The translations under genes were made by a program, and so were the position numbers. From NCBI RefSeq assembly GCF_006345805.1, contig NW_021833430.1, positions 9,815 to 73,814 on the forward strand: a DNA stretch of 64,000 bases, written 5' to 3'. The notes beneath the pieces were generated by a model that saw only the letters and a list, made by a program, of their open reading frames with translations, had not been told where the DNA came from and searched no databases. The stretch comes from Octopus sinensis. Lineage: Eukaryota. Within the stretch, counting starts at the first letter, position 1. Each line of letters starts with the position of its first letter. Below, in pieces: positions 6,583 to 44,985 of the stretch.

Positions 6583-6614
<32 letters not shown>

Positions 6615-6624: not shown

Positions 6625-6670
<46 letters not shown>

Positions 6671-6690
6671 GCACATACATACATACATGT
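6405..6690. repeat. Compound (CA)n/(CT)n microsatellite
   Basis: Direct inspection. Confidence 0.95.
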
Positions 6691-8635: not shown

Positions 8636-9020
8636 TAGCTGTGTGGTAAGTAGCTTGCTTATGAACCACATGGTTCCAGGTTCAGTCCCACTGTGTGGCA
8701 TCTTGGGCAAGTGTCTTCTACTATAGCCTCGGGCCGACCAAAGCCTTGTGAGTGGATTTGGTAGACGGAAACTGAAAGAAGCCCGTCGTGTATATGTATG
8801 TGTATATAAATATATATATGTATGTCTGTGTCTGTCCCCCCAACATCGCTTGACAACTGATGCAGGTGTGTTTACATCCCCATAACTTTGTGGTTCGGCA
8901 AAAGAGACCGATAGAATAAGTACTAGGCTTCCAAAGAATAAGTCCTGGGGTCTATTTACTCGAATAAAGGCGGTGATCCAGCATGGCCACAGTCAAATGA
9001 CTGAAATGAGTAAAAGAATA
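8636..9020 (+). mobile_element. SINE family A
   Basis: GCTGTGTGGTAAGTAGCTTGC...GACTGAAATGAGTAAAAGA. Confidence 0.85.
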
Positions 9021-9034
9021 CATAACAATTTGAG

Positions 9035-9370
9035 GGTGCATGGCTCAGTGGTTAGAGTGTCAGGCTCACAATCATGGAGTAGTGAGTTCGATTTCTGGAC
9101 TGGGTTGCGTGTTGTGTTCTTGGGCAAGCTGCTTTATTTCACGTTGCTCCAGTTCACTCAGCCGTAGAAATGAGTCGTGATGTCACTGGTGCCAAGCCGT
9201 ATTGGCCTTTGCTTTCCCTTTGGGTAACATTGTTGGCATGGAGAAGGGAGGTTGGTATGCATGGGTAACTGCTGGTTTTCTATAAACAACCTTTCCCAGA
9301 CTTATGTCTTAGAAGGGAACTTTCTAGGTGCAATCCCATGGTCATTCATGTCCGAAGGGGGTCTTTACTC
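9035..9370 (+). mobile_element. tRNA-derived SINE (family D-like)
   Basis: TGGCTCAGTGGTTAGAG (A box), GAGTTCGATTTC (B box), TTGTGTTCTTGGGCAAG. Confidence 0.65.
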
Positions 9371-9615
9371 TTTATAACAATCAATTGAAGGAATTGTGTT
9401 TTGTTCTCTCACTGGCATCAGCTACCTTGAGGAAAACATCAGAGGAAACCAGCTACTTAGATGGCTTGATTGGTTTTTAGCCCCTACATCCAGTTCTGAT
9501 GATTGAGCAGCACATCAGAGGTGATTAGGATATCCTCCAGACTTTCCTCTGTGCTTTGATCTGACTGGTGCAAATTTAGAGAAATAGATAATAGGGATAA
9601 TGTATTGAATCATAT

Positions 9616-9655
<40 letters not shown>

Positions 9656-10529
9656 AGAAAGGTGGGGGGATAGTTGTCAAAATCTACCTCAAGTCGCTTC
9701 TCACTGTCTGAAAAAAAATATGCTTAGAAATAAGAAAAATTAAAATTAAAATTAAAAATACATTGGATAATTTAATCCTAGGTACACTATTTCTACAAAT
9801 AGGCAACAATAGAAGCAAAAAGGAAACAAAGAAACATGTAGGAGTTTCATGTCTGCAACATGTTTGATCAAAGGAGTTTCATGTAGGAATATGTTTGATC
9901 AAAGTATTACTAGATCAGTATTGACACCAGCAACATTAATATATGATGAAGAGAGTCATTATCATCATCATTTAGCACTCCTGTTCCATGCTGATATGGG
10001 TTGGATGATTTGATAGGGTTTGATGTGTCCAAAGACTGCATCAAGCTCCAATGTCTGCTTTAGCATGGCTTTTGTGGCTTGGATGCCCTTCCTAATGCCT
10101 ACCACTTTACAGCATGAACTGGGTGCTTTTTGTTTTGTGCCACCTGTACTAACGAGGTTGTCATGCAGTTTGCAGGACTACAAACCCTGGAGTTGGCAGG
10201 TGTGTGTGAATTCGTGCTATGAGACACGGAAATTATTATGAGGGAAGGGAACAGAGCTGCTTCCCGCAGAGAGATCTGCATGGCTGATCACGTTTAGTAT
10301 GGGAAAAGTGGAGTGGAAAGAAAAAGAAAAATTGTTATCAGTAGGAGCTGCAAGATGTAGATAATGGCAATAAAGTTTCAATAAAACTTTGTCTAACCTA
10401 TGCAAGCATGGAAAAGTGGATGTTAAAATGATGATGAAGTACTTCTAGGGTTCTGTGGTCAATGTTGGCCATTCATCTACACAAGTCGTCTTGCAGGTCT
10501 GAAACAAGTAAAAGGTAAGAGATATATAC

Positions 10530-10930
10530 ATCATCATCATCGTTTAACGTCTGCTTTCCATGCTAGCATGGGTTGGACGATTTGACTGAGGGCTGGCGAA
10601 CCAGATGGCTGCACCATGCTCCAATCTGATCTGAGAGAGTTTCTACTGCTGGATGCCCTTCCAAACGCCAACCACTCCGAGAGTGTAGTGGGTGCTTTTA
10701 CGTGCCACCAGCACTGGCAACAACCTTGCTCAGGCGGTACTGGCAACAACCTCGCTCGAATCTTTTACACATGCCACCGGCACAGGTGCCAGTAAGGCGA
10801 TGCTGGTAACGATCACGCTTGAATGGTGTCTTTTACATGCCACTGGCACGGAAGCCAGATAGCCGCTCTGGCAACAATCACGCTCAGATGGTGCTCTTAA
10901 CACCCTACTAGCATGGGGCTCGAGTGCCAG
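10530..10930 (-). mobile_element. SINE-like family C
   Basis: Close match to 596-1166. Confidence 0.8.
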
Positions 10931-11053
10931 TTGATATTATGAAGTTCATGAAATGCAGAAATAAACATACAAGACTCCTTGATATCATTAATTCTACAAA
11001 GAGTGCAGATATGTTCTTTTCTTTCTAATTGCACAATTATTTCCTTTTGTCAG

Positions 11054-11149
11054 TTACGAAGACCAACGAGCTCTACGTGGAGGAAAGGATGGATTGGATC
11101 TCATTAAAGCTGTTTTAAAGACAGCATGCCATCTGGTGTCTCCTTCAGG
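11054..11149 (+). CDS. HEMK1: HemK-family methyltransferase, exon C
   Basis: ttttgtcag| acceptor and GG|gtcagt donor. Translates (F)YEDQRALRGGKDGLDLIKAVLKTACHLVSPS(G), the HemK YEdxxALxGGxDGL motif. Phase 2-2. Confidence 0.93.
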
Positions 11150-11745
11150 GTCAGTATCATCTCTCTTCTTTTATCTTTTACCTGTTTCAGTCATTGGATT
11201 GCGATCATGCTGGAGCAAGTGACATCTTCTATAGTCTCAGACTGACCAATACTTTTGTGAGTGAATTTGGTAGATGGAAACATGATGGGCTTCCACACAG
11301 TTTCCATCTACCAAATTCACTTGCAAAGCATTGGTTAGTATTATCTCTCTTCTTTTATCTTTTACTTGTTTCAGTCATTGGATTGCGATCATGCTGGAGC
11401 AAGTGACATCTTCTATTGTCTTAGACTGACCAGTACTTTTGTGAGTGAATTTGGTAGATGGAAACATGATGGGCTTCCACACAGTTTCCATCTACCAAAT
11501 TCACTTGCAAAGCATTGGTTATCCTAAGGCTATAGTAGGGTTAGTATCATCTCTCTTCTTTTATCTTTTACTTGTTTCAATCATTGGATTGCGATCATGC
11601 TGGAGCAAGTGACATCTTCTATAGTCTTAGACTGACCAGTACTTTTGTGAGTGAATTTGGTAGATGGAAACATGATGGGCTTCCACACAGTTTCCATCTA
11701 CCAAATTCACTTGCAAAGCATTGGTTATCCTAAGGCTATAGTCGA
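11150..11745. repeat. Three tandem ~190-200-bp units of rearranged SINE A, each with a 21-bp perfect hairpin
   Basis: Units begin near 11150, 11335 and 11540. Each contains GTGAATTTGGTAGATGGAAAC-N18-GTTTCCATCTACCAAATTCAC. Confidence 0.9.
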
Positions 11746-11974
11746 TGACACTTGTCCAAGGTGGTGCACAGTGGGACTGAACCCAAAACCACATGGTTGC
11801 AAAGCAGGCTTCTTAAGCACGCAGCCATATATGCATCTGTTAGGTTAAAGTTTTTGTGATTGTTTTTGGAATTTTATCTTTTGTTTGTGAAATCTGTTGC
11901 AGATTGATATTTTGAGAATTCTCATGTTCTACAGATCCTTGTTTCTCTTCTTCTATGTCTATTTAATAAATATT

Positions 11975-12196
11975 CTTATTTCTTTATTGCCCACATAGAG
12001 GGGACAAACAAGGACAGACAAGGAGATTAAGTTGATTACATCGACCCCAGTGCGTAACTGGTATTTAATTTATCAACTCCAAAAGGATGAAAGGCAAAGT
12101 CGACCTCAGCGAAATTTGAACTCAGAACGTAACGGCAGACGAAATACTACTAAGTATTTTGCCCTGCGTGCTAACGTCTCTGCCAGCTCGCTGCCT
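11975..12196 (-). mobile_element. SINE family B
   Basis: Reverse complement of GGCAGCGAGCTGGCAGAGACGTTAGCA...AATAAAGAAATAA. Confidence 0.82.
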
Positions 12197-12469
12197 TATA
12201 TTTAATAAATATTCTGTTAAGCAATGTTTTGCTTTTTTTTTTTTGTATTCATTCATTAATAGTTCCTTTGACCCTATATGGAACATAGGGCACCAGCAAG
12301 AGATTGCCATCTGTTTTGATCTTTGGCAATAGATTGCAGTTGTCCCCAGGTGTTGTCCTCTCCCAGTTCCCCAGTTTCTGTGGATCTTATCCATGTTGTT
12401 TTTTATCTGCCCTACTTCTATCTCCCTTGGGTGTCCATTGGAGGGCTTAAAAAAAGAAAAACACGATTT

Positions 12470-12950
12470 TTTCGTGGCTGTTGCCAGTACCGCCTGACTG
12501 GCCCTCGTGCCGGCGGCACGTAAAAGCACCCACTACACTTTCGGAGTGGTTGGCATTAGGAAGAGCATCCAGCTGTAGAAACTCTGCCAGATCAAGATTG
12601 GAGCCTGGTGCAGCCATCTGGTTTGCCAGTCCTCAGTCAAATCATCCAACCCATGCTAGCATGGAAAGCGGACGTTAAACAATGATGATGATGATTTAAC
12701 ATTTACATTCCATACTGGCATCATTTGGATGGTTTGACAGGAACTGGTAAGCCAGAAGACTGCACCAAGCTCTACAATCTGCTTTGACATATTTGACGTA
12801 TTTCTTTGACATATTTTTTTGACATATTTGACATATTTCTGTGACCAGATGTCCTTCCTAATGTCAACCCCTTTACAAGGTGTACTGGGTGATTCTTTAT
12901 GTGGCACCAGCACCAGTGAGGTGACCAAGTAACTTGTGAGACAAGACCCC
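12470..12950. mobile_element. Tail-to-tail pair of SINE-like family C copies (+ 12470-12695, - 12690-12950)
   Basis: GGACGTTAAACAATGATGATGATG is directly followed by a reverse-oriented, more diverged copy. Confidence 0.72.
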
Positions 12951-13204
12951 TCAACTGATGGGGAGAATAATATTGCAGTAAGTGGTTTTATGCAAGGTGA
13001 TGACTGGTTAGGGGACAGTAAAATGTGTCTTGCAGTAGACATCAGGAAAAAAGGGGGAAAAACCTTGGTCTACACCACTTATCGGACACATAATCATTGA
13101 AAACAAAGCTGTACAATTTTGTACCTCATGCAGTTGAGTATAGAAGACAACCATGATTAACCAATTATTGCTAGAGCATTCTTTCAAGTGTTGTATTAGT
13201 TTGA

Positions 13205-13425
13205 CCCTTTCGTTACCAACCCGGCCAAAACCGCCTCTGGCTCTGTAGTACAAATGTCTTGTTTTCAGAAGTTTTGAATTAAAATCTTCCGCCAAACCTT
13301 AGTCACAATTTATGTTCCTAACACTAGCTGAATGATAACTAAGTTATTTTACTAAATTCTTTGTTATAGTTAAAGTAATTGAAAGAAACACAGAGCATCT
13401 CAAAATAAATACAGTAACAAAAGGG
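13205..13425. mobile_element. piggyBac-like (TTAA) MITE
   Basis: TIRs CCCTTTCGTTAC / GTAACAAAAGGG, flanked by TTGA / TTAA. A related diverged copy lies at ~14100-14310. Confidence 0.7.
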
Positions 13426-13455
13426 TTAATGTTATTAAAAATCTTTTATTTTCAG

Positions 13456-13569
13456 ATCAATTTGGCTTGAGGTTGACTGTAGCCACATATCAGAGCTATA
13501 TAAGTGGGTTGTATCAGAGACAAAGCTCTGCTTACGGACTGTCAATATACTTCCTGACTCCTCTGGAAA
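13456..13569 (+). CDS. HEMK1: HemK-family methyltransferase, exon D
   Basis: ttttcag| acceptor and AA|gttagt donor. Translates (G)SIWLEVDCSHISELYKWVVSETKLCLRTVNILPDSSG(K); GxIxLEVD fits HEMK1. Phase 2-2. Confidence 0.9.
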
Positions 13570-13605
13570 GTTAGTAATTTTTCTATTTTCTTAATTGTTA
13601 TTTTA

Positions 13606-14092
13606 ACCCTATCGCATTCAGATTTCTTTGTCAAATGTATTGCTTTTTTATTCACATTCTTCTGACTTAATCACATATTGTCCTATAGCTTCAAGATTTC
13701 ATTGGTGTATTTGTATATTTTTAGAATGACATTGTAGGGTAGGTGCAAGAGGCTGGATCTAGGCAGTTTAAATATATATTTCTTTACTACCCACAAGGGG
13801 CTAAACACAGAGGGAACAAACAAGGACAGACAAACGGATTAAGTCGATTACATCGATCCCAGTGCGTAACTGGTACTTAATTTATTGACCCCGAAAGGAT
13901 GAAAGGCAAAGTCGACCTCGACGGAATTTGAACTCAGAACGTAACGGCAGACGAAATACGGCTACGCATTTCGCCCGGCATGCTAACGTTTCTGCCAGCT
14001 TGCCGCCTTTCATTTTAAATATAAAGGCAGTTTAAATATAAAACAGTCAGAATATTTGGGCTGGATATGGCTGGATTAAATACTAAAGAGTT
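13606..14092. mobile_element. TTAA-type MITE interrupted by a SINE B copy (13778-14008, minus)
   Basis: TTAACCCTATCGCATTCA ... TTAAATACTAAAGAGTTAA ends. The SINE is flanked by duplicated AGGCAGTTTAAATATA (13761-13776, 14025-14040). Confidence 0.65.
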
Positions 14093-14310
14093 AAGGGTTA
14101 ACTCCTTTGATACCAGCCTGCCTGAGACTATCTCCAGTCCTGTGATATAAATTTCTTGTTTCAAAGAAATCTAATTTAAAACTTTCCATTAAAATTTCAT
14201 GTTAATTTACATTCCAAACACCAGCTTAATTATGAGAAAGCTATTTTACAAAATGTTCCATTATTTTCAAAATTAACTGATGTAAAAGTAGTGTATTTCA
14301 ACAGAAATAT

Positions 14311-14685
14311 ACTCTTTTACTCTTTTACTTGTTTCAGTCATTTGACTGTAGCCATGCTGGAGCATTGCCTTTAGTCGAGCAAATCGACTCCAGGACTTAT
14401 TCTTTGTAAACCTAGTACTTATTCTATCGGTCTCTTTTGCTGAACTGCTAAGTTATGGGGGACGTAAACACACCAGCATTGGGTGTCAAGCGATGTTGGT
14501 GGGGACAAACACAGACACACACACACATGACAGGCTTCTTTCAGTTTCCGTCTACCAAATCCACTCACAATGCTTTGGTCAGCCCAAGGCTATAGTAGAA
14601 GACACTTGCCCAAGGTGCCATGCAGTGGGAATGAACCCGGAACCATGTGGTTGGTAAGCAAGCTACTTACCACACAGCCACTCCT
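14311..14685 (-). mobile_element. SINE family A
   Basis: (ACTCTTTT)n tail through ...CCACACAGCCACTCCT head. Confidence 0.87.
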
Positions 14686-14963
14686 AACCCAGACTTCATC
14701 TTTTTAGATTCTTGTCTGATCTCTTATGAAATTTTAGAGGAAAGTAGAGCCTTTTCAGGAGCCTGAGTCATTGAAAGAAATGGCTGTAACAAAGATGGCT
14801 ACTAATTTATTTGTTTAAGATTTTGTCCATCATTTACTGACCACTTATTTTAACTGATCCTTAATTATGATACAGTTTCAGATAATTTTTTACCTTGACA
14901 CTTAAACTTATTACAACAGCTGTTATGAAATTTCTCTTGTAAATTATTTTTGATTTCTTTGAG

Positions 14964-15015
14964 AGACCGTTTCTTCCATTTTATGAGGACTGAAGATGAT
15001 TCAGGACCAGCTTAA
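14964..15015 (+). CDS. HEMK1: HemK-family methyltransferase, terminal coding exon
   Basis: ttctttgag| acceptor gives (K)DRFFHFMRTEDDSGPA*, completing the conserved C-terminal DxxGxxRF motif. The five exons total 480 nt in one frame, with TAA at 15013-15015. Confidence 0.8.
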
Positions 15016-15394
15016 GCAAAACAACAGGTTTATTTCAAAACTTCCTTTATTTAATTGGCAAGACATTAAAGCATAATCAGTGATGAATATGAATTAGTAA
15101 ATCAAAAATTCAGTTTTCTTCCAGCTTGTTCTCTAGGTTAGACTCTGCAACTAAATCAAATATAGCCTATTTTCATTTAACTTCATTATTTTATTATTAT
15201 TTTTTATTTTTTGAGGAAATGGTTTATATTCAAATAGATTTTCTACCTGAAGCAGAAGTACAACCTGCTTAATACTCGAGATGAGCTAAATATAAAGAGT
15301 TATGTACCTTGTCCAGTGTTACATCACAATAGCTTACATATAAGGTTTGGCCTCAACTATTATACTACAATACATAGTTAATTAGTTAGTTAAT

Positions 15395-15568
15395 TTTTGG
15401 CTCAAAAAGCAAAAAGCAAGGCCATGTAGGGGGACATGGAGTTATGTACAGGGTGGTGTTCATGTAAAGAGTTCAAGCCACTTGTGGTCAAGGGAGACTT
15501 TGAACCGAGCGGTCGTCAGCATCTTCACCATCTCGTCCGGCAGCTTATTCCACGGATCCGCAACCCGC
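15395..15568 (-). mobile_element. 3' end of a CR1-type LINE
   Basis: Minus strand translates RVADPWNKLPDEMVKMLTTARFKVSLD, the CR1/L2 C-terminal WNxLP..FK..LD motif. (CTAA)n-like tail. Confidence 0.7.
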
Positions 15569-16074
15569 AGCATGCTATAAATGATATATGATCAGTGTTG
15601 TGTGATGCGAAAATGGGCCTTTATCAAGAGTTTCTTACATCATCTGTTGTAATGTAATGTTATAATGACTATAAATAACTTTAGATAATACAAAGCTCTT
15701 CCATGTATTTCTCATTATTTTTTTAACATTTCCCATATTTTAATGTGTATAAGGAACCCCTAATTTTGGGGTTTTTTAATTTTTGAAAAATGGTTTTGTA
15801 AGGGATTATAATACTATCCATGTATAAGAAACTCCCATACTTCTTAAACCTAATTATTGACAAAAAAGGGTTCCTTAAAATACAGTATATATAAAGTATG
15901 TCTTGTATGTATCATTAGATGTGTGACAGCTACTGTCGAGTTTAGACCTCCATGTAGATAATCATCACTCTGTCTGCTTCCAGTATAAGGGTTTCAATGA
16001 TTTGACTGCTGTATTTAGTAATATTACTGGTTATGATGTACTGAGCTAATGTCAGAGAAATTATGATAAACACA

Positions 16075-16350
16075 TCATTATCATCATCGTTATACATCCA
16101 TTTTCCTTGCTGTGATGGGTTGGATGGTTTGGCCGGGGTCTGGGAAGCCAGGAGGCTGCGCCAGGCTCCAGTCTGATCTGGCAGTGTTTCTACAGCTGGA
16201 TGCCCTTCCTAACGCCAACCACTCCAAGAGTGTAGTGGGTGCTTTCTATGTGCCACCGGCACAGGGGCCAGACGAGGCTGGCAAATGGCCATGGTTTGTT
16301 GGTGCTTTTTACATGTCACTGACATGGACCTCAGTCAGGTGGCGCTGGCA
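16075..16350 (-). mobile_element. SINE-like family C
   Basis: CAGCTGGATGCCCTTCCTAACGCCAACCACTCC core. Confidence 0.75.
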
Positions 16351-16364
16351 TCATCCACGTTTCA

Positions 16365-16570
16365 GCTGAATATACGTCATTGATTGGTTGAAATTACTGA
16401 AATATGACAACCTTAACAAAAAATAACTTCCAAAATACAGAATTTTTTCAACAACACCAAGAGTAAAAGATGTTTTATGTGACACATTCTACAAGTATAC
16501 AAAGTTTGAAAGTGTTTAGTTAAAAAAAATTATTTTTTAAATCTGTCGGTCAAAAGGTAAAGTTCCATAA
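16365..16570. repeat. Dispersed AT-rich repeat (second copy at ~18565-18830)
   Basis: TGATTGGTTGAAATTAC..ATATGACAAC..TTAACA shared between the two loci. Confidence 0.65.
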
Positions 16571-16610
16571 ATGGTATAGATTTGTGTTTATTGGAATTTC
16601 TCAAATATAT

Positions 16611-17008
16611 CTCTTTTCTTTTACTTGTTTCAGTCATTGGATTGGAGCCATGCTGGGGCACTGCTTTGAACGAATCAACCCCAGTACTTATTTTGTTGAA
16701 GCCTGGTACTTATTCTTTTAGTTTCTTCTGCTGAACCACCAAGTTACAGGAACATAAACAAACCAATACCAGCTGTCAAGTGGTGGTGGGAACAGACATA
16801 AATAGAAAGACACACACACAGAAATATGTACCTGTATATATATACAATGAACTTATTTTAGTTCCTGCTTACCAAATCCAATCACATGCCCTTGGTCAGC
16901 CCAGGGCTGTAGGAGAAGACATTTACTCAAAGTGCCACACAGTGGGACTGAACCTGTATCATGTGGTTGGGAAGCAAACTTCTTGCCACACAGCCATGCC
17001 TGCACCTA
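16611..17008 (-). mobile_element. SINE family A (old, diverged)
   Basis: Tail, body and head are all recognisable. Confidence 0.75.
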
Positions 17009-18069
17009 TTTACACACATACACACACACGCATGCATGCTCACTGCTTGTATTTATTAGTATTTTTCAATAAAATATTTCAAAATGCTTTTTAGTTTGAG
17101 TTATAACTGATTTGGTTTATAATTTGTTTTTGTTTTTTTGTTTATTGCAGATTATCTTCTGATTTAGCCGATCTATAATCAGATATTCCCACTTGACATT
17201 TAATTTGTAGGTAGAAACAATAGCATGATGTCGAGGATTAATTAGCGTGTATGTCCATTCTTTTAAAGATGCCAAGATTTAAGTAGTTTTAAGGAAAATT
17301 TGGCTAATATTTCTAGCAGAATGATTGACTTGTAGTAGCTCCTCTGTTGGCTGGTTTGAGTTATAATTAATAATTACATCACTAGGTAAGACAAGCTGAC
17401 ACTGAATCAGCTTCGCTGACTGACAGGTGACAATCGTTTAGAGAATGCGCGGGCTAAGACTACGCGCCTTCACTAGTCAGTTAAGGTGAGACAGTGTCAC
17501 GTGACAACTTGCTTGGGCTGCCTACTGGAGCCTAGCAGCAGGTATTTAAAGGGAAAAATTTGACAAGTCAGTCAGTCACCGGCTGACGCTCGCTGACGAT
17601 ACATCGAAGAGGCCAGGGAACATAAGAAAGAAGACATGCACCCAACACCAGAGCTGAAGACACCTCCGAAAGTGTGGGGGGGGGCCGCCACGTCAAAACG
17701 GTAGAGGAGTAGGGGCCGAAACCGGACGTGGTTCCTCCTGAGGATGTCTTGAGCTAACTGGATCCTATAAAGGAGCTTTTGTGGTAGCAGACCACGAAAC
17801 ACGGTTGTAATTCCTGTTGCTAATAGATGTAAAACTTACTTTTCTAATCTACTGGCCTTGCAAACACTGAAGGAAGCATACAACCTTTCCTCTCGTTATT
17901 ACTCCTTCAATACTTCTAGATATCTAACTTGAATAGTCTCATCACAAGGAATATCTGTTCTCTACCTAAATTATAATATTTGATGCTGTCATTGTTAAGC
18001 TCCAGTTGAAAAATGATTGATCAGGCTTCAGCTATCAGCATCCTATCTTATTTTTGGAGATTGTATAGC

Positions 18070-18387
18070 TGTGTGTTAAGAAGTTTACTTTCCAGCCCCA
18101 TAGTGTTAGATTCAGCCCCACTGTGTGACACTTTGGGAAAGTGTTTTCTACTATTAATGGACCGGCTAGTGGCCGTTCGCCAGCCTCGTCTGGCACCTGT
18201 GTCGGTGGCACATAAAATCACCCACTACACTCTCGGAGTGGTTGGCGTTAGGAAGGGCATCCAGCTGTAGAAACACTGCCAGATCTGACTGGTCTGGTGC
18301 AGCCTTCAGGCTTCCCAGACCCCAGTTGAACCGTCCAACCCATGCTAGCATGGAAAGCGGACGTTAAACGATGATGATGATGATGAT
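18070..18387 (+). mobile_element. SINE A head fragment followed by SINE-like family C
   Basis: GCTGTGTGTTAAGAAG.. head, then ..GGAAGGGCATCCAGCTG..GGACGTTAAACGATGATGATG. Confidence 0.75.
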
Positions 18388-18974
18388 TAACTAGAGGCAA
18401 TTCTTTCTTTCTCTCTGAATTGGTTATATTTCATTATAAGAAATATTGTGAAGAACCATTTGCAGGGAGGGAAAGTGTGAGGAATGCATGGTGTTGACTG
18501 GAAAGGATGAAGGTGGCATCATCTTTGCTCAAATACGAATAGAACAGAGTGGTGACATTTAGTAGAGATGACCTGGATGTAGTTCCTCTTTGATTACTAT
18601 TGCAAACAACAGTAGCTTTCTTCAACTGAATACATATCGTTGATTGGTTGAAATTACCCAGATATGACAACTTTAACAGGAAATAGCTTCTAAAATACCA
18701 AATTTTGTCAAAAATGTTCAAAGTAAACTGTGTTCTACATGAGATTCCACCAGTATATAAAGTTTCAAACTGTTTGGTTAAAAAAAATTAATTAAAAAAA
18801 TCTGTGCACCAAACTGAACAGATCCCAAAATTCTAATTAGTCACAGTTCGTCAATGCTCAGAACAATACTAAAACTGTAGTATGAAAGATGTTTTACTAG
18901 GGTCAGTACAGTCATGCCTTTACACAACCTCTCAGCACCAAATGTCAAGAGTTCACATTTTGGAGAGAGGCTTC

Positions 18975-19203
18975 TTATTTCTTTACTGCCCACAAGGGGC
19001 TAAACACAGAGAGGACGAACAAGGACAGACAAACTGATTAAGTCGGTTACATCAACCCCAGTGTGTAACTGGTACTTAATTTATCGACCCTGAAAGGATG
19101 AAAGGCAAAGTCGACCTCGGCGGAATTTGAACTCAGACGTAACGGCAGACGAAATACGGCTATGCATTTCGCCCGGTATGCTAACATTTCTGCCAGCTTG
19201 CCA
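18975..19203 (-). mobile_element. SINE family B
   Basis: Matches the 13778 and 29162 copies. Confidence 0.85.
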
Positions 19204-20019
19204 CAGCAGTCATATTTCTTGTTTATATTGGAGAGAGGCTTCTGCACATGATTATCAGGATTTGGAACAGACTTCCAAGGATTATCACAAGAGGCATTTT
19301 CGTCAACAAAGTATAAGCTTTTAAATTGTGTGTGAGCAAACACTCCTTGTTATTTTTGCCATTGGAAATGCAATGAACTCAGTGACTGGCCTGTTGAAAA
19401 TCTATAATTAACAACTGTTTACAAATATATGATAGAGATGGAAGAATGTAAAAGAAAATGGTTAAAGCAGTCATATTTGTTGTCTGTATTATGACCAATT
19501 AAGACAGTGCAAAACACTGAACTTGTTAGCTTTATTAACAAATGCCCGGTTTTTTTTTTCTAAAAGTTTCCATCTTTGGCTATAGATAAGTGTCAAGTTG
19601 TGTTATATAGGTGAAAAAATGTTTTCATTATGAGACTTGTTAAAAAGCTTAGAAACTGAAGAAGAAAAAGATGATGTAAACAAACAATTAGAGTACCAAA
19701 ACAAAAAAAAATGGTTCACTTGAACAATATTGATTTTTCTTTATATTTTTAGGTATTTAAACCTGACCCAGTTGGTCACAAATAATGGAAAACCTTTAGG
19801 GAGATCTTGCCAAAGTCTATTGTCTGAGCATCTTCCCTGTAATATATTGCACGTGTGTAGCTGGTGTTCCATTTTACAGTCAAGAGTCTACTTTGCAGTA
19901 ACAGGAACTTCCAATGTGTGTATGAAAGGAGCTGTAGATACCTTGTAGCTATGCACTCTCAAACTACCCTTTATTTTTATATTTATAGATGGAGATTTTT
20001 TGTACATTTGAAAACATTG

Positions 20020-20175
20020 CACACATACACATGTACACACACATGCACACACAAACACACATGCACACACAAACACACATGCACAAGCATTTGCACATAC
20101 ATGTGCACACATGTACACACACAAGCACATGCACACATGCACACACAAACACACACACATACACAAACACAGACA

Positions 20176-20234
<59 letters not shown>

Positions 20235-20440
20235 GCATATGTACGATGGGCTTCTTTCAGTTTCCGTCTACCAAATCCACTCACAAGGCTTTAGTCGGCC
20301 CAAGGCTATAGCAGAAGACACTTCACCAAGGTGCCACGCAGTGGGACTGAACCTGGGACCATGTGGTTGGTAAGCAAGCTACTTACCACACAGTCACTCC
20401 TGCACACACATGCAACACACACACACACACACATGCATCA
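20020..20440 (-). mobile_element. SINE family A 5' half with expanded (CA)n/(TA)n
   Basis: GGGCTTCTTTCAGTTTCCGTCTACCAAATCC...CCACACAGTCACTCC. Confidence 0.8.
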
Positions 20441-21710
20441 CATTTAGACTACAAACTGTGAATTAAGGGGAAACAAAAAAAATAGCTGGTCCGTCACTCC
20501 ATGAATTCTGCCATTTCATCAAACTCTAGTAACACTTTCAAATTTTGGCACATGGCTAGCAATTCTGATGGAAGTGAGTTAGTAAATGACATCGACAAGC
20601 CCCCACCCCACCCCCAGGGCTTGATTTATCGACCTTAAAAAGATGAAAGGCAAAATCAACCTCAGCTGAATTTAAAAAGCCAGAAGGAATGCCACTAAAC
20701 ATTTTATCCAAAGCACTAATGATTCTGCCTACCCACTCTCTGTGTGTGTGTGTGTGTGTGTGTGTATTATAGGCACAGAACCCTGGAATTTGGGGGAATG
20801 GGGATAGTTGATTACTTTACCCCCAAAGCTCAACTGGTACTGTTTTATCAACCCCAAAAGGATCAAAGACAAAGTTAACCTTGGCAGCATTTGAACTCAG
20901 AATGTTAAGTCAGAAGTAATGCTGCTGAGCATTTTATCGAATAGGTTAATGATTTTGCCAGCTTGCTGTCATCTTATCCCCATCTAATAATAATAATAAT
21001 AATAATAATAATTTCTATAAAGGCTTCTTCTTTATTTTCATTCCATGCTGTTCTAGATCACTCTTTTCTTAGACAGTTCCAGTAGAATAACGGTTTTCTT
21101 CTGTGATGAGGTCGCTCCTTACATACCTTCTTCATTTATGGAGAAGAGAAAACTGAGTTGTTCTTACGACTCTTCCTACAATACAATGTGGATGATTCTG
21201 AGAGAGAGAGAAAGAAGCAGAAGAAGAAGAATCGATGCTAGTACTTTATTGGTACTTTATTTGTCAATTTTAGATGGCTGGAAGACTTTCACAGGATTTG
21301 GACTCTGAGTGTAGAAAGCTACAATAAATTCCAGAAGTCATTCTATCAGATGTTCCACTGACTATTAACTTGTTTCTTGTCTAATATCGGCAGAAGATCA
21401 CACATTTTGGGTGAAGTACAGCTTATTAGATTCACCACTGTATTTGCGATACCGATCCTAGAAAGATGAAAGAATTACCATAGTAAAATTTGAACTTTGT
21501 AGGTTAGCAACATTGGAAGATATTTAGTCTGAGCTTCTACCAATTCTACCATCCACTGCCTTTTACAATGATTGTTTGTAATGTAAGCACAAGACCAGAG
21601 CTTTGGAAGAAGGACATTAATTGATAAACACTTTTGTTACTATATTTATGTTGAAATACACCACCAGTGTTAAAAAGGATTTTGAAAATAATAAAGATTG
21701 TATTAAGATA

Positions 21711-22810
21711 TTAGGTTGTCAAGAAGTTCTTGTGGAATTTTTAATTTTGGTTTTAAATGATGTATTTTCAAATTAATTTTCGATAAATTACTTTTACTTT
21801 ATATATAATTTTAAAGTCCGTTTTTCGCTCTATCTAATCGTGTTGCTCTTTTTCTTTTTGAATAATTAGGCCATTTTTTTCCGGAATGTTGAATACAACA
21901 TTGACAAAAAGCAAATTGGCACAATTTTCTTATTCCAGTTCAAGCTAGGCCGAAAAGCTGCTGAAACAGCTCGCGATATCAACCACTAATGAACGTACAG
22001 CACAATGGTGGTCCAAGAAATTTTGTAGTGGTGACGAGAGTCTTGAAGATGATAAGCATAGTGGTTGACCATCAGATGTTGACAACAATCAACTAAGAGC
22101 CTTAGTGGAAGCCAATCCATGCACACGTGTTCGAGAGCTTGCTTCTGAATTAGACATAACATATACGATAATTTCCAACCACTTGAAAGAAGTTGGAAAA
22201 ACAAATATATTTGAGAAATGGGTGCCGTGTGAACGACAACCAAAAAACGCCGTCTTGAACAACAACCAAAAAACGCCGTTTTGAAGTGTCGTCTTCCCTT
22301 CTTTTACACAACAAGAATGACCCATTTCTTGACTGGATTGTGACTTGTGATGAAAAGTGGATTCTCTACGACAACTGACAACACTCAGCTCAGTGGTTGG
22401 ATGCCGACGAAGCTCCACAGCACTTCCCAAAGCCAAAGTTGCACCAAAAGAAAGTCATGGTGACTGTTTGGTGGTTTGCGGCCAGTCTCATCAATCACAG
22501 CTATTGTATCCAGGTGAAACCATTATGGCAGAGAAGTACTGTCAGCAAATGGATGAAATGCATAGGAAACTCCAACAACAACAGCCAGCATTGGTCAATA
22601 GAAAAGGACCAATTCTTCTCCATGACAACGCTCGGCCGCATGTCACACAACTGACCCTGCAGGAGTTGAATGAATTGGGATACAAAACTCTGCCTCATTC
22701 GCCTTACTCACCAGACCTCTCGCTTACCGACTACCACTTTTTCAAGCATCTCAACAACTTCCTGCATGAGAAATGCTTCAAAAACCTAGACGATGCCAAA
22801 CATGCCTATT
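21711..22810 (+). mobile_element. Decayed, 3'-truncated mariner transposon (Hsmar1/cecropia-like) with transposase pseudogene from ATG 21886
   Basis: TA + TTAGGTTG left end. Peptides DKKQIGTIFLFQFKLGRKAAETARDIN, GDESLED, KWVP, IVTCDEKW, LLHDNARPH and YSPDLSLTDYHFF. Stops and frameshifts present; no right TIR seen. Confidence 0.92.
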
Positions 22811-23183
22811 TTTATTTTCCTAAAATTTTCGTTGCGTCTTGCAACCTTTTCAATAGTCTAACTCATATAAAGAATCTTGCAAACCAAATCCCAAAACGAA
22901 AGGTAAAAAATTACTAAAGACAAAATTTGTAAATCTACTCCATACATTGCAAGTTAATGACTTCCTGGTGCCTGATGGGATCTAGTTAAACTTTCTATAT
23001 CAGGTTGGGCAACTGTTGAGAACCTCTGCAGTAGAGTGTTGTGAGTACATGACAGTAGAGTAGAGTTACATGACAACATTCCAGATATCAGGTGTCCAGG
23101 CTTATTCTTTGTTTAATTCAGGAATGCTTCAAAGCTATGGGTAGAGCTATGGGAAAATGTGTCTGACATAAAATGGCACATTT

Positions 23184-23684: not shown

Positions 23685-24770
23685 GTTTTCGAAAATTTTC
23701 ACTGAAAATTTTCACCGAATATTTTCTCCAAAAATTTTTCGAAAATTTTCACTGAATATTTTCGGCAAAAATTTTCGAAAATTTTCACCGAAAATTTCCC
23801 CCCAAAATTTTTCGAAAATGTTAACCGAAAATTTTACCCAAAAATTTTTCGAAAATTTTTCAGAAATTGGCACCGCTGACTTTCCATACTTTGTGATTTG
23901 GGCATCGCTGTCTTTCCGTACTTTGTGATTTTGGCACCACTGGCCTTCCATACTTTGTGATTTTGGCACCAAAAATTTACCCAAAAATTTTCCGAAAATT
24001 TTAACCCAAAAAGTTTTGGAAAATTTCACCTAAAAAGTTTTCGAAAATTTTCACTGAATATTTTCCCCAAAAATTTTTCGAAAATGTTAACCGAAAATTT
24101 TACCCAAAAATTTTGCAGACATGTCACCAAAAGTTTTTCAAAAATTTTTCAGAAATTGTGATTTGGGCACCGCTGTCTTTCCGTACTTTGCGATTTTGGC
24201 ACCAATGGCCTTCCATACTTTACCCAAAAATTTTGCGAAATTTTCACCTAAAAAGTTTTCGAAAATTTTCACTGAAAATTTTCACCGAAAACTTTACCCA
24301 AAAACTTACCGAAAATTTCACCTAAAAAGTTTTCGTAAATTTTCACCGAAAACTTTACCCAAAAATTTACCGAAAATTTTCACCGAAAATATCAAGTAAT
24401 GAGTTTTCGAAAATTTTCACTAAAAATTTTCACCGAAAATTTTACTCAAAAATTTTTACCAAAAATTTTTCGAAAATGTTAACCGAAAATTTTACCCAAA
24501 AATTTTTCGAACATTTCACCAAAAATTTTTCGAAAATTTTCACCGAAAATGTTACCCGAAAATTTTTCGGAAATTGGCACCGCTGTCTTTCCATACTTTG
24601 TGATTTTGGCACCACTGGCCTTCAATACATTGTGATTTTGGCACCACTGGCATTCCATACTTTGTGATTTTGGCACCGCTGGCCTTCCATACTTTGTGAT
24701 TTTGGCACCGCTGGCTTTCCTTACTTTTTCGAAATTTTCCCCCCAAAATTTGGAGAAAACTTTCACCGAA
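23685..24770. repeat. AT-rich palindromic A-tract satellite (GAAAATTTTC / CACCGAAAATTTT) interleaved with a 32-bp satellite
   Basis: Repeated ~10-13-nt units. 32-mer CCATACTTTGTGATTTTGGCACC(A/G)CTGGCCTT at ~23865-23970, ~24155-24220 and 24575-24720 (four clean units at 24591-24718). Confidence 0.92.
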
Positions 24771-27700
24771 AAGGAATGCCGACAGAGATCAAAGGGGAGT
24801 ACCGACATAGATCAAAGAGGAGTGCCGACAGAGATCAAAGAGGAATACCGACAGAGATCAAAGAGGAATGCCGACAGAGATCAAAGAGGAATGCCGACAG
24901 AGATCAAAGGGGGGTACCGACAGAGATCAAAGAGGAATGTCGTCAGAGATCAAAGAGGAGAGATCAAAAGGGAGTACTGCCGACATAGATCAAATAGGAG
25001 TACCGACAGAGATCAAAGAGGAATTCCGACAGAGATCAAAGGGGAGTACCGACAGAGATCAAAGGGGAGTACCGACAGAGATCAAAGAGGAATGCCGACA
25101 GAGATCAAAGAGGAGTACCGACAGAGATCAAAGAGGAATGCCGACAGAGATCAAAGAGGAATACCAACAGAGTTCAATGGGGAGTACCGACAGAGATCAA
25201 AGAGGAATGCCGACAGAGATCAAAGGGGATTACCGACAGAGATCAAAGAGGAGTGCCGACAGAGATCAAAGAGGAATATCGACAGAGTTCAAAGGGAAGT
25301 AGTGACAGAGATCAAAGAGGAATGCCGACAGAGATCAAAGAAAATGCCGTCAAAGATCAAAGAGGAATGCCGAAAGAGATCAAAGAGGAATCCCGACAGA
25401 GATCAAAGAGGAGTACCGACAGATATCAAAGAGGAATGTCGACAGAGATCAAAGGGGATTACCGACAGAGATCAAAGAGGTGTGCCAACAGAGATCAAAG
25501 GGGAGTATTCACAGAGATCAAAGAGGAGTGCCAACAGAGATCAAAGAGGAATGCCGATAGAGATCAAAGAGGAATGCCGACAGAGATCAAAGGGGAGTAC
25601 CGACAGATATCAAAGAGGAATGCCGACAGAGATCAAAGAGGATTACCAACAGAGAACAAAGAGGAATGCCGTCAGAGATCAAAGAGGATTGCCGACAGAG
25701 ATCAAAGGAGAGTACCGACAGAGATCAAAGAGGAGTACCGACAGAGATCAAAGAGGAGTGCCGACAGAGATCAAAGAGGAGTACCGACAGAGATCAAAGA
25801 GGAATGCCGATAGAGATCAAAGGGATGTACCGAAAGAGATCAAAGAGGAATGCCGATAGAAATCAAGGGGGAGTACCGACAGAGATCAAATAGGAATGCC
25901 GACAGAGATCAAAGAGGAATGCCGACATAGATGAAAGAGGAGTATCGATAGATATCAAAGACAAATGCCGTCAAAGATCAAAGAGGATTGCCGAAAGAGA
26001 TCAAAGAGGAATGCCGACAGAGTTCAAAGAGGAATGTCGACAGAGATCAAAGGGGAGTACCGACAGAGATCAAAGAGGAATGCTGACAGAGATCGAAGAG
26101 GAGTACCGACAGAGATCAAAGAGGATTGCCGACAAATATCAAAGGGAAGTACCGACAGATATCAAAGTGGAATGCCGTCAGAGATCAAAGAGGAATTCCG
26201 ATAGAGATCAAAGGGGGGTACCGACAGAGATCAAAGAGGAGTACAAACAGAGATAAAAGAGGAGTACCAACAGAGATCAAAGAGGAATGCCGACAGAGAT
26301 CAAAGGGGATTACCGACAGAGATCAAAGAGGAATGCCGACAGAGATCAAAGGGGAGTACCGACAGAAATTAAAGAGGAATGCCGTCAGAGATCAAAGAGG
26401 AGTACATAGAGAGATCAAAGGGGAGTACCGACATAGATCAAAGAGGAATGCCGACAAAGATCAAAGGGGAGTACCGAAATATATCAAAGGGGAATACCTA
26501 CAGAGATCAAAGAGGAGTACCGACAGACATCAAAGAGAAATGCCGTCAAAGATCAAAGTGGAGTACCGAAATATATCAAAGAGGAATACCAACAGAGATC
26601 AAAGAGGAATGCCGACAGAGATCAAAGAGGAATGCCGACAGAGATCAAAGGAGAGTACCGACAGAGATCAAAGAGGAGTACCGACAGATATCAAAGAGGA
26701 GTACCGACAGATATCAAAGAGGAGTACCGACAGAGATAAAAAAGAAATGCCGATAGAGATCAAAGAGGAATCCCGAGAGAGATCAAAGGGGAGTACCGAC
26801 AGATATCAAAGAAGAATACCGACAGAGATCAAATAGGAGTACCGACAGAGATCAAAGAGGAATGCCTACATAGATCAAAGTGGAGTACCGACAGATATCA
26901 AAGACAAATGCCGTCAAAGATCAAAGAGGAATGCCGACAGAGATCAAAGGGGAGTACGGACAGAGATCAAAGAGGAATGCCGACAGAGATCAAAGAGGAG
27001 TACCGACAGAGATTAAAGAGGAATGCCGACAGAGATCAAAGGGGAACAGACATAGATCAAAGAGGAATGTCGTCAGAGATCAAAGAGGAATGCCGATGGA
27101 GATCAAGGGTGAGTACCGACAGAGATCAAATAGGAATGCCGACAGAAATCAAAGAGGAATGCCGATATAGATCAAAGAGGATTGCCGACAGAGATGAAAG
27201 TAGAATGCCGACAGAGTTGAAAGAGGAATGCCGACAAGGATCAAAGGGGAGTGCCGACAGATATCAAAGAAGAATACCGACAGAGATCAAAGAGGAATGC
27301 CGACAGAGATCAAAGGAGAATACCAACAGAGATCAAAGAGGAATGCCGACAGAGATCAAAGAGGAATGTCGACAGAGATCAAAGAGGAATGCCGACAGTG
27401 ATCAAAGGGGATAACCGACAGAGATCAAAGAGGAGTACCGAGAGATCAAAGGGGAGTACCGAAAGATATCAAATAGAAATACCGACAGAGATCAAAGAGG
27501 AATGCCGACAGAGATCAAAGGAGAGTACCGACAGAGATCAAAGAGGAGTACCGACAGAGATCAAATAGGAGTACCGACAGAGATCAAAGAGGAATGCCAA
27601 CAAAGATCAAAGAGGAGTACCGACAGAGATCAAAGAGGAGTACCGCGACAGAGATCAAGAGGAGTGCCGACAGATATCAAAGAGGAATGCCGACAGAAAT

Positions 27701-28409
27701 CAAAGGGGTGTACCGACAGAGATGAAAGAGGAAAGCCGACAGAGATCAAAGGGGAGTACCGAGAGAGATCAAAGAGGAATGCCGACAGAGATCAAAGGGG
27801 AGTACCGACAGAGATCAAAGAGTAATGCCGTCAGAGATCAAAGAGGAATGCCGATACAGATCAAAGGGGAATACCGACAGAGATCAAAGAGGAATGCCGA
27901 CATAGATCAAAGAGGAGTACCGACAGAGATCAAAGAGGAATGCCGACAGAGATCAAAGGGGAGTACCGACAGAGATCAAAGAGGAATGCCGACAGAGATC
28001 AAAGAGGAGTACCGACAGAGATTGAAGAGGAATGCCGACAGAGATCAAAGAGGAATGCCGATAGAGATCAAAGGGGAGTACCGACAGAGATCAAAGAGGA
28101 ATGCCGTCAGAGATCAAAGAGGAATGCCGACAGAGATCAAAAGGGAGTACCGACATTCCTCTTTGATCTCTGTCGGTACTTCTTTTTGATCTCTGTCGGC
28201 ACTCCTCTTTGACCTCTGTCGGTACTCCTCTTTGAACTCTGTCGGTACTCTCGTTTGATCTCTGTCGACATTCCTCTTTGATCTCTCTTGGTACTCTCCT
28301 TTGATCTCTGTCGGTACTCCCCTTTGATCTCTGTCAGCATTTCTCTTTGATATCTGTCGGTACTCCTCTTTGATCTCTGTTGGCATTCCTCTTTGATCTC
28401 TGACGGCAT
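24771..28409. repeat. 23-bp tandem satellite (GCCGACAGAGATCAAAGAGGAAT), ~147 forward units then ~11 inverted units
   Basis: Unit read directly. Main variants are GAGGAATGCC, GGGGAGTACC and GAGGAGTACC. Orientation flips at ~28151-28155. Copy numbers are length/23 estimates. Confidence 0.97.
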
Positions 28410-29000
28410 ACTTTGTGATTCCATACTTTGTGATTTATCCGAAAATTTTAACCCAAAAAGTTTTCGAAAATTTCACCCAAAATATGTTGAAAAATTTTCA
28501 CTGAATATTTTCCCCAAATATTTTTCGAAAATTTTCACCCAAAATATCAAGCAAAATGTTTTCGAAAATTTTCACTGAAAATTTTCACCGAAAATTTAAT
28601 CCAAAAAGTTTTCGAAAATTTTAACCGAAAATTTTACCCAGAAATTTTCCGAAAATTTTAAACAAATTGTTGTCGCAAATTTTGTGTAAAATTTTTGGTG
28701 AAAATTTTCGAAAACTTTTTGGTTAAAATTTTCGGTTAAAATTTTCGAAAACTTTTTGTTTAAAATTTTGGGTGAAAATTTTCGAAATGTTTTTGGTTAA
28801 AATTTTCGGAAAAATTTTGGTTAAAATTTTCGGTGAAAATTTTCGAAAACTTTTTGCCTAAAATTTTTGGAAAATTTTTGGGTAAAATTTTCGAAAACTT
28901 TTTGGTTAAAACCGAAAACTTTACCCAAAAACTTACCGAAAATTTCACCTAAAAAGTTTTCGAAAATTTTCACCGAAAATTTTACCCAAAATTTTACCCA
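28410..29000. repeat. Right-hand A-tract satellite with internal inversion, preceded by 32-mer fragments
   Basis: CACCGAAAATTTT orientation to ~28665, reversed (AAAATTTTCGGTG) at ~28680-28910, then forward again. Confidence 0.9.
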
Positions 29001-34036: not shown

Positions 34037-34612
34037 TATTTGAGAAGCACACATAACAGGACCGCGGTTTTGTACTTAACAACTGAGAAGAACGATGTCA
34101 GGGTTAAAGACGACGTACAGGACTGGGGTCAAAGTTATATTAACGCGAACTCTATCTCTGCGGAGCAGCTGTAGTAGTAAAGGTGGAAAATAATGAATGT
34201 AGAAAAGCTAAACTGACAAGACTCTCTCTCTCTATCTCTCACTCTCTCGCTCATACACACACGCAAATACCCCCCTCCTCTCTCTGTAAGAGGTTGAAAG
34301 GCTTTGGTGTGAGATACAGCATCAATAAGTCGGAAGGTTTTCTTGATATAACCCTGGGATTATTTTAAATCTTACTCTAAGACTTATTGTCTTAAACGTA
34401 TTTGAACTGATTTAAACGTTTGTTTACTCATAGCACAGCTCCCACGAGCCTACTATCATATAATACATAAAGGTTTATCAAAATGTTGACGATAATATCT
34501 TAGAAAAGTCCTGGGCCACGTCTCATCGGCGAGAGTAACGAACCGCATAACCCTTGTCGATTTCTAGCAATGTATTTCTTGGAAACGATATACTTATAAC
34601 TATATCCTTTAA

Positions 34613-35209
34613 CCTATTTCTTTACTACCCACAAGGGACTAAACACAGAGAGGACAAACAAGGACAGACAAACGGATTAAGTCGATTACATCGACCCCTG
34701 TGCGTAAATGATACATATTTAATCGACCCTGAAAGGATGAAAGGCAAAGTCGACCACGGCGGAATTTGAACTCAGAACGTAACAGCAGACGAAATGCTTA
34801 TTTCATTACTACCCACAAGGGGCTAAACACAGAGAGGACAAACAAGGACAGACAAACGGATTAAGTCGATTATATCGACCGCAACGACCAACTGGTACTT
34901 ATTTAATCAACCCTGAAAGGACGAAAGGCAAAGTCGACCTCGGCGGAATTTTAACTCAGAACGTAGCGGCAGATGAAATACCTATTTCTTTACTACCCAC
35001 AAGGGGCTAAACACAGAGGAGACAAACAAGGATAGACAAACGGATTAAATCGATTACATCGACCCCAATGCGTAACTGGTACTTAATTTATCGACCCCGA
35101 GAGGGTGAAAGGTAAAGTCGATCTCGGCGGAGTTTGAACTCAGAACGTAACGGCAGACGAAATACCGCTAAGCATTTCGCCCGGCGTGCTAACGTTTCTG
35201 CCAGCTCGT
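34613..35209 (-). mobile_element. Tandem trimer of SINE family B
   Basis: TATTTC.TTACTACCCACAAGGG recurs at ~34615, ~34800 and ~34983. Only the last unit has the head. Confidence 0.88.
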
Positions 35210-43754: not shown

Positions 43755-44985
43755 CAGGGTCAGGCAAAATGATCTGACACATTTGTGGGTTAAATAAAAG
43801 GCATTGTTTTTCGTTTCTTTTTCAGTTGCTGCCATGAATTGGACTGGTGAGCATCGCGCTTTCATTGTGCAAACGTTTATCATAACAAACGATTCTGTAA
43901 CTGCAACACAAAGAGCGTTCCGTTTGCACTTCAATCTTGGTAGACATGATCCCATACCAGCTCGAAACACGATCTTGTTATGGGTTACCAATTTCAGAGC
44001 TACTGGATCTGCATTGAAACGAAAATCAACCGGCCGACCTCGCACCGCCAGAACTCCAGAAAATGTGGCAGCGGTAAGAGCTTCAGTTCAACAGTCTCCA
44101 CGCCGTTCCACATTTAAACGCGCCCAGGCTCTTAGACTTTCCGAAAGAAGTTTGCGAAGAATTCTTCACAATGATCTTCAAATGCATCCATACAAAACGA
44201 TGTTGGCACAAGAACTCAGCGAAAGAGACACTGAAACTCGCAGAGCATTGTGTTTGGAAATTCAACAACATGTCCCCCATGCAGCAGTTGTGTTGTTCAG
44301 TGACGAGGCACATTTTCACCTGTGTGGCACAGTGAATAAGCAAAACTTCAGATACTGGGCCGAGAACAACCCTCGTGAGTTGCATGAACGCCCTTTGCAT
44401 TGTCCTCGGGTGTGCTGTGGCAGAATTCGGTATATGGGGTCCGTACTTCTTCGAAGAAGACAATGTTACAGTGATTGTGAACTCTGATCGATATTGTGAG
44501 ATGCTAGAGACTTTCTCAGACCAAAATTAAATATGCTCCACGATGTGGACAATGTTTGGTTTCAACAGGATGGGGCAACAGCCCACACTTCTCGACGTGC
44601 GATGGGGATTTTGAGGAATATGTTCCCTGGTCATTTGATCTCATTGCGTGGTGACATCGGTTGACCCGCCCGTTCACCTGATTTAAATCCGTGCGATTTT
44701 TTTCTCTGGGGATACCTCAAGTCAAAGGTATACATTAATCGCCCTCGATCTATTGAACAATTTAAAGATGCAATTCGTCAAGAAATTACTGCCATTCCAC
44801 ATGAAATGACCTTCGACAGTGTGTGGACAATAATGGATCCCATTTGACTGATTTAATTTTTAAAACATAATGAAACAAAATGGCATTATATGTACTTTTC
44901 AAAAATAAAAACATTTTTTTGTTTCTTTACTTCATTTGCCTTTTATTTAACCTACAAATGTGTCAGATCATTTTGCCTGACCCTG
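43755..44985 (+). mobile_element. Tc1/mariner-superfamily DD41D (rosa/Visitor-type) transposon, both TIRs intact, transposase pseudogene 43834-44870
   Basis: TA TSD and ~49-bp TIRs CAGGGTCAGGCAAAATGATCTGACACATTTGT(G/A)GGTTAAATAAAAGGCA. Motifs VLFSDEAHF, WFQQDGATAH and *PARSPDLNPCDFFLWG, with 41 residues counted between D2 and D3. Frameshift near 44410; TGA at 44662. Confidence 0.94.

Follow-up and report, generated by a model that had tools for sequence, protein, structure and literature searches.

A dispersed octopus minisatellite of HMG and Helper-like sites, with a likely origin in LINE codons and a possible link between TCF binding and amplification

A stretch of 64,000 nucleotides from Octopus sinensis (NW_021833430.1, positions 9,815 to 73,814; hereafter the window, in which positions are counted from 1) contains an array of 23-bp units in which a core site for the HMG-box factor TCF stands beside a motif resembling the Helper site bound by the C-clamp of invertebrate TCFs. 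Judged from its sequence, the array is one of a family of dispersed satellites derived from a transposable element (TE), and its unit probably arose when 22 coding bases at the end of ORF2 of a long interspersed nuclear element (LINE) were duplicated in tandem. The reading that we favour, tentatively and with a confidence just short of even, is that of a LINE-born minisatellite, spread by repair-associated template switching and bound by TCF, in which binding would bias amplification and no dedicated target would be involved. The founding unit would have held AGATCAAAG only through the codons for E-I-K-E. Blocks would then have been copied into breaks, mostly in distal chromosome arms, with template switches at microhomologies of 3-6 bases that would also have stitched in sister repeats of 9, 10, 13, 32 and 59 bp. 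Finally, units able to bind TCF (HMG box and C-clamp) would keep arrays open or stall replication forks in the germ line or early embryo, sister units binding TEAD or Grainyhead would act likewise, and such units would be copied more often; a target gene of their own would be unnecessary.

Structure of the array

Tandem Repeats Finder (TRF) placed the main array at 24772-28155 on the + strand (147.6 units of 23 bp) and an inverted run of 10.9 units at 28157-28406, whose tail reaches 28409. Together they hold 157 full monomers, in agreement with the 150 to 160 units of a preliminary description of this DNA. The unit of the main array is composed of a Helper-like RCCGACA, an 11-bp HMG site (G)AGATCAAAG(A) and a 5-bp linker. 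Exact copies of AGATCAAAG number 110 in the array (104+6) and one in the remaining 60 kb, and the 7-bp core CTTTGAT occurs 129 times in the array against 12 in the remaining 60,360 bases. The preliminary description had counted about 150 TCF/LEF sites, each paired with a Helper-like motif, which is overstated in its details: only 32 of the 129 cores have the optimal form with both S flanks (SCTTTGATS). As to the pairing, RCCG adjoins the core on one side in 102 cases, on the other in 98 and on both in 76, yet GCCGACA is present only 45 times and the perfect GCCGCCR never. Subtype variation, most of which had been ascribed to the linker, does lie there at columns 18 and 22, but also at column 1, the first Helper base. 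The main array comprises two linked subtypes, one of them with an M-CAT (TEAD) match spanning the unit junction; the main subtype agrees with an M-CAT (TEAD) probe over 10 bases in 45 places.

The inverted tail (28157-28409, - strand, about 11 units) is 90% like 25551-25812, its best partner, which lies 2.3 kb upstream (24/253 mismatches). An assembly mirror artefact was rejected for the tail, which does not mirror the units next to it and has its best partner so far off. At the inversion joint (28149-28160) there is a short CGACA microhomology from a palindromic GTCGAC unit variant, of which the array has 8 copies, and we infer a template switch at this microhomology.

Origin of the unit in a LINE

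The unit matches the ORF2 end of a LINE at 22 of 22 positions. A 19-base pattern had 5392 exact matches genome-wide, LINE copies included, and none in a reversed control. All 17 solo matches examined fell at the same spot near the end of ORF2 in one LINE family (2058 candidates at first look), where the LINE bases encode V-P-K-E-I-K-E. The LINE carries an RVT_1 domain (E=2e-20), and we take the family to have CR1/L2 affinity. The LINE 22-mer is nearly invariant in 29 copies found through flanking DNA, which hold too few changes to serve as a position-matched neutral control. Exact copies of the 22-mer number 54, spread over 15 of 47 stretches, and the TRF consensus of one short array (stretch L056) is a rotation of it. 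The LINE-type letters are also linked, with A6 in 267 of the 293 units that have C1 and either A or C at column 6. If the repeat consensus is taken as 10 Mb, we estimate the chance of such a LINE match roughly at 1e-4 to 3e-4. Related older LINE lineages keep N-I-x-P-K/T using other codons, which argues for a direction from LINE to satellite. A LINE directly flanking an array, as expected at a birth locus, was not seen in the 600 bp next to any array end that was tested.

The founding unit would have carried AGATCAAAG because it encodes E-I-K-E, and given an origin in LINE codons the TCF core needs no selection to appear. A chance match in a founding monomer, raised in the preliminary description, is thereby given a concrete source. 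An origin that requires no selection is equally what one would expect of a neutral by-product, a LINE-born unit that had a TCF core by chance, drifted, and was spread by ordinary satellite turnover. The conserved core would then reflect some 20 early variants that happened to fall elsewhere, and the other motifs would be coincidence or shared descent. We consider this quite possible, and return to it with the conservation tests.

Fit to TCF and its Helper site

For Drosophila, Archbold et al. (2014, PMC4154663) report half-maximal inhibitory concentrations (IC50) of 5.1 nM for AK6, 38.7-66.6 nM for the group containing KK0 and 292-969 nM for HMG sites alone, with an AK spacing optimum of 6 bp. 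In the fly assay each of the seven Helper bases had an effect, strongest for the first four, where any change did as much damage as losing the motif. Set against the probes of Table S1 in the same source, the 23-mer has KK0 inside each unit and AK5 where two units meet, a junction that resembles AK6, and the 22-mer forms AK4; the geometry thus agrees with that of the published probes.

The genome's TCF gene, at C6:82.24-82.28 Mb, has a LEF1-like HMG box (exon match E=1e-16) and an intact C-clamp, C-X12-C-X2-C-X5-C, read from genomic DNA over two downstream exons. This is the spacing stated for the C-clamp in PMC4999783, and such a C-clamp had been anticipated for an invertebrate TCF. Given the probe-like geometry and a TCF with a C-clamp, the arrays are predicted to be bound by the host TCF in vitro. 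They share with the Drosophila HMG-Helper modules an HMG site and a Helper-like motif in AK (here 4-5 bp) and KK0 arrangements. Unlike those modules (PMC4154663), the octopus Helper is 6/7 at best, the S flank is usually missing, and the arrays have hundreds of copies per locus and a putative LINE origin; the array has the build of a Wnt-responsive HMG-Helper module, but its sequence alone does not suffice to class it among them.

Three further observations concern HMG genes. The TCF gene contains two different second HMG-box exons with a basic tail, each followed by a GT donor (L090:~5300-5440 and L091:~6150-6340; C6:82.245 and 82.256 Mb), which look mutually exclusive and could change DNA recognition. 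An array of 25 units (L137, C6:82.612 Mb) lies about 330 kb downstream of the C-clamp exons, possibly by coincidence. Identical Sox-type HMG sequences are found on several unplaced contigs (L063-L067, L070-L072), reflecting either assembly redundancy or recent duplicates.

Spread of the family

Mapping of the monomer genome-wide, proposed in the preliminary description, covered 2.7 Gb, and the family sizes that it gives are lower bounds. At least 48 stretches contain arrays, which became at least 42 non-redundant dispersed arrays with 6214 units, mainly of 22 or 23 bp, once L029 and L057 were dropped as near-duplicates and four split arrays were merged. Units stand head to tail at many loci, as in a TE-derived dispersed satellite or minisatellite. 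Among placed arrays, 29/39 lie in the outer 15% of the chromosome, against 11/31 LINE copies (p=6e-4). Array flanks are unrelated, except for small groups sharing one side. In an empty-site search with 37 flank pairs, in which the many matches of L129 were discounted as untrimmed units, two clear counterparts emerged, each with a loss of about 5-6 bp and no duplication. Inversion joints number 16, in 9 of the 48 stretches, many of them at short shared words. The unrelated flanks, the two empty sites with loss and the inversion joints together point to copying into breaks with template switching. The array is also present in part in 17 of 24 listed sequencing runs under five organism labels, which may denote close relatives; no RNA run was listed among them, an outcome that weighs neither for nor against expression. 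Contigs from these runs number 1916 for label A, 443 for C, 1063 for D and 40 for E.

Array flanks also bear on whether the units could be cargo of one mobile carrier, either Helentron/HINE-like or a foldback element. In favour are the A/T blocks to either side of the window array and its inverted tail, the inverted flanks of 460 bp in L113, and a few array pairs with one flank in common. Nevertheless, no flank is common to the family, and both resolved insertions show loss and not duplication. A single shared carrier was sought and not found among the flanks, where only small array groups share one. As to a foldback element, a partial mirror was seen in the window and L113 only, and no empty site was seen for the window composite. 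Coding repeats, which we group with the carrier, draw on the + strand consensus, which has no stop codon; they were rejected on the 11-15 stops per frame and the mixed 21-24-bp units of the array. Carrier and coding repeats together strike us as highly improbable. A Pfam FitA-like match in an array frame was spurious, with no passing stretch.

A third possibility is a function in the host, with the arrays acting as Wnt-responsive (and Hippo- or Grainyhead-responsive) enhancers of neighbouring genes or as a buffering sink for TCF/beta-catenin across the genome, maintained by selection on the animal. The reporter-like geometry, the 5392 genome-wide matches (LINE copies included), the arrays under several organism labels and two short arrays situated some 3.6 kb beyond the 3' end of Toll-like receptor genes speak in its favour, as does the precedent of functional Helitron-borne HSF-1 sites (PMC6927752). 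No host gene was found among the 27 of 82 open reading frames (ORFs) scanned in the window, a scan that short exons would escape; the array sites resemble repair scars and not chosen positions, and sub-optimal flanks dominate, with 32 of 129 cores S-flanked. We regard a host function as unlikely.

Several loci are worth recording. Tandem Toll-like receptor genes with leucine-rich repeats (LRR), a transmembrane segment (TM) and a TIR domain were seen at L182:8176-9999, L056:3-434 and L057:3-689; the most LINE-like short arrays (L056:4075-4333 and 4869-5041) are those about 3.6 kb downstream of such genes, in CpG-rich DNA with CCAAT-like words. In L113, the 460-bp inverted copies of one flank (2477-2920 and 6375-6826; 92%) end in short TACGTG-containing repeats. 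A tRNA-like gene was recognised by eye in the left flank of an array at L115:~3230-3300, and kilobases of degenerate TTAGGG-type repeats adjoin 22-bp arrays at interstitial positions in L119, L120 and L173.

Conservation of the TCF site

If TCF binding had biased amplification, as we tentatively propose, the site should have been favoured after its birth. Divergence is 0.032 in the core and 0.120 in the linker, and the core is lower in 41 of 42 arrays, also when base-matched. After base matching, columns 11-17 are the best of the 23 seven-column windows (column permutation p=1.3e-4), and core conservation persists (p=0.007) after a correction for trinucleotide context, for which dispersed repeats served as the source. 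Measured against the context expectation, the CpG of RCCG has changed least. Of 20 variants that are widespread, one is a core variant (p=0.002, not base-matched; these class tests left out arrays of fewer than 80 units, 12 of the 42, leaving 30 large ones). In 7 stretch groups found only via the 9-bp repeat, the best windows were at columns 8-11 (p=0.003).

When the series is rooted on the LINE, RCCG arises through C1>G, A6>C brings the Helper match to 6 of 7 bases, and an added linker base shifts AK4 to AK5, towards the optimum given in PMC4154663. C1>G and A6>C are rare transversions, with a joint, roughly mutation-weighted chance of 0.004-0.008. In four runs of other labels, all 9 of the listed rows with indels have them within the linker; under label D the linkers are much shortened, whereas the block of Helper and core is intact. 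Of letter-by-letter variation under other labels a single row was listed, too little for a comparison of substitutions between species. These partly separate signals (the position of the core, the two Helper-building transversions and the linker-only indels in other runs), together with the spacing of TEAD double motifs in a sister repeat, agree with one another and count against a purely neutral by-product.

A number of results weigh on the other side. When 1951 haplotypes were each counted once, the ratio of common to singleton variants was 0.068 in the core against 0.095 (p=0.13), and the comparison value without the subtype columns was 0.077 (p=0.67). Array-level p-values are inflated because arrays share ancestry and inherit variants together; the context-corrected test falls to p=0.052 without the subtype columns, and being the best of 23 windows amounts by itself to about p=0.04. 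Three variants that break RCCG are at 3% or more in many of the 30 large arrays (C2>T in 25, C3>T in 16 and G4>A in 16), the change to a perfect Helper occurs in only 25 of 6658 units, and deletions within the core have in some cases spread in this genome (at column 14, in 9/42 arrays). About half of the window units begin with A, at one of the four Helper bases that were critical in the fly assay (PMC4154663). Finally, that binding promotes the copying of units is a link that we infer.

Several of these results are what a neutral by-product would give, namely the non-significant haplotype-level test, the widespread Helper-breaking variants, the similar rates of rare alleles in core and linker, and the position of arrays in repeat-rich DNA with unrelated flanks. 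The greater stability of HMG and Helper over the linker, as put forward in the preliminary description, therefore stands for the core across 42 arrays and at the level of columns, not at that of haplotypes; as for the Helper, variants destroying it are among the most widespread and the perfect form never spread. The signal of TCF-site conservation depends on about 20 old variants, and we treat it as no more than suggestive.

Sister repeats with TEAD-like and Grainyhead-like motifs

The preliminary description had pictured a single array, missing both the inverted tail and the interleaving of the family with other repeats. At least 6 RCATTCC sites stand beside arrays in 11 of 48 stretches, against 0 of 64 controls. 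A listing by the 9-bp pattern alone gave 10 loci, of which 7 adjoin 22-bp arrays (two of the 7 also belong to the array set), and some loci are long mosaics that cycle through 22-, 10- and 9-bp blocks. One label B contig spans both joints, and labels C and D show shorter pieces. In the 9-bp unit, CATTCC-nnn-CATTCC is strung into a chain; PMC4546604 describes it as the double motif to which TEAD binds cooperatively. The 10-bp unit, commoner than the 9-bp one, contains AACCGGTT, the Grainyhead consensus (PMC5829564). In those sources the motifs are single or double sites in enhancers or crystals, whereas in octopus they are chained into kilobase tandem arrays.

In a panel of 24 motifs, applied without the TCF unit, 3 or 4 of 12 sister units had a match against 1.03 expected (p=0.07 or 0.014). 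This panel was written after the sister units had been seen, and the 9-bp and 10-bp units, derivable on paper from pieces of the 22/23-mer, may not be independent of it; for both reasons the sister-unit matches are weak support. In addition, TEAD columns in the 59-bp unit show no greater conservation overall (0.097 vs 0.068).

A more ambitious variant holds that multi-pathway mosaics, with TCF and Helper, TEAD double-motif, Grainyhead and perhaps STAT sites, evolved stepwise from LINE codons to higher affinity, as occupied, mobile enhancers or a sink; we find it doubtful.

Two of the sister-repeat loci deserve mention. At C13:54.495-54.513 Mb (L122, L180, L181), 22- and 9-bp blocks alternate over about 18 kb with higher-order repetition, L181 alone having 300 TEAD double motifs. 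A 59-bp repeat skewed in purines and pyrimidines (L033, L121, L174, L176, L177) holds an inverted TEAD-like pair, of which one member is nearly invariant and the other decaying.

Comparison with known systems

Protein-binding motifs conserved inside a tandem repeat are known from the CENP-B box in alpha satellite, and GC-rich subtelomeric human minisatellites are destabilised by PRDM9 binding, a parallel for binding-driven instability. The octopus arrays resemble these cases in having a motif within a tandem repeat and subterminal mosaics, with an instability that may depend on a bound protein. They differ in that the motif is that of a developmental signalling factor, whose binding is predicted.

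Clusters of heat-shock elements in Caenorhabditis likewise owe their spread to mobile, repetitive DNA and hold clustered sites for a signal-responsive factor; a Helitron carries them, and occupancy and gene induction were demonstrated (PMC6927752). Unlike them, the octopus arrays have no carrier that we found, a unit probably taken from LINE codons, and up to three classes of factor site interleaved. Cg_HINE of the Pacific oyster also comprises short satellite arrays dispersed over the genome, with conserved flanks that include a subterminal inverted repeat (subTIR), a microsatellite and a palindrome (PMC7492417). The octopus flanks are in contrast unrelated, with only small groups sharing one, in a comparison that did not scan subTIRs and palindromes separately. 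A literature search of mostly open-access reach returned no account of TCF sites in satellites or of this cephalopod repeat; repeat catalogues in the supplements of genome papers may list the 22/23-bp unit.

The family offers a rooted series, from the LINE unit through intermediates, all surviving in one genome. With such a series two questions become testable, namely whether the evolution of a satellite can be directed by the protein that binds it, and whether a signal-responsive element can arise de novo from tandem repeats. Should the arrays prove to be occupied, their dispersed blocks would supply TCF, TEAD and Grainyhead sites by the thousand, with possible effects on signalling thresholds and on regulatory turnover. 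Should they prove unoccupied, they would show cleanly how codons can produce what looks like a perfect reporter, and would counsel care in reading motifs.

Surroundings of the array in the window

The array sits within a mosaic that extends over 23690-29000. To its left (23690-24771, + strand), 12/13-bp A/T-tract repeat blocks with 12 TTCnnnGAA sites alternate with a 32-bp repeat (23867-23970, 24156-24221 and 24574-24727), and to its right (28407-29000) partial 32-bp units are followed by 12/13-bp A/T-tract blocks in both orientations.

The window belongs to an unplaced contig (C9901), and its left 14 kb are more than 99% identical to C4:11.02-11.03 Mb. The left flank and the first 322 bp of the array are 99.8% identical to C4:11.03 Mb, where the array enters an N gap. 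Pieces of 8461-21973 (- strand) are 88-96% identical, in inverted orientation, to C4:4.627-4.640 Mb, which adjoins another array of the family, 11.6 kb long; this segmental duplicate may have carried the window array.

Transposon relics and microsatellites surround the array, with interspersed repeats that presumably resemble octopus short interspersed nuclear elements (SINEs). Domains in the scanned ORFs were transposase, helix-turn-helix (HTH), zinc-knuckle and reverse transcriptase (RT), apart from the spurious array-frame match. Broken mariner/Tc1-type transposase relics are found at 21700-22830 and 43798-44484 (Transposase_1; DUF4817/HTH_32), and retroelement fragments at 48032-48991, 59793-61187 and 63098-63820 (weak zinc knuckle, RT domain, LINE C-terminus). 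A 184-bp SINE-like segment is repeated head to tail in the window (34612-35166) and in two other stretches (L037:1256-2353 and L104:557-1663), a second case of a TE piece turned into a tandem array.

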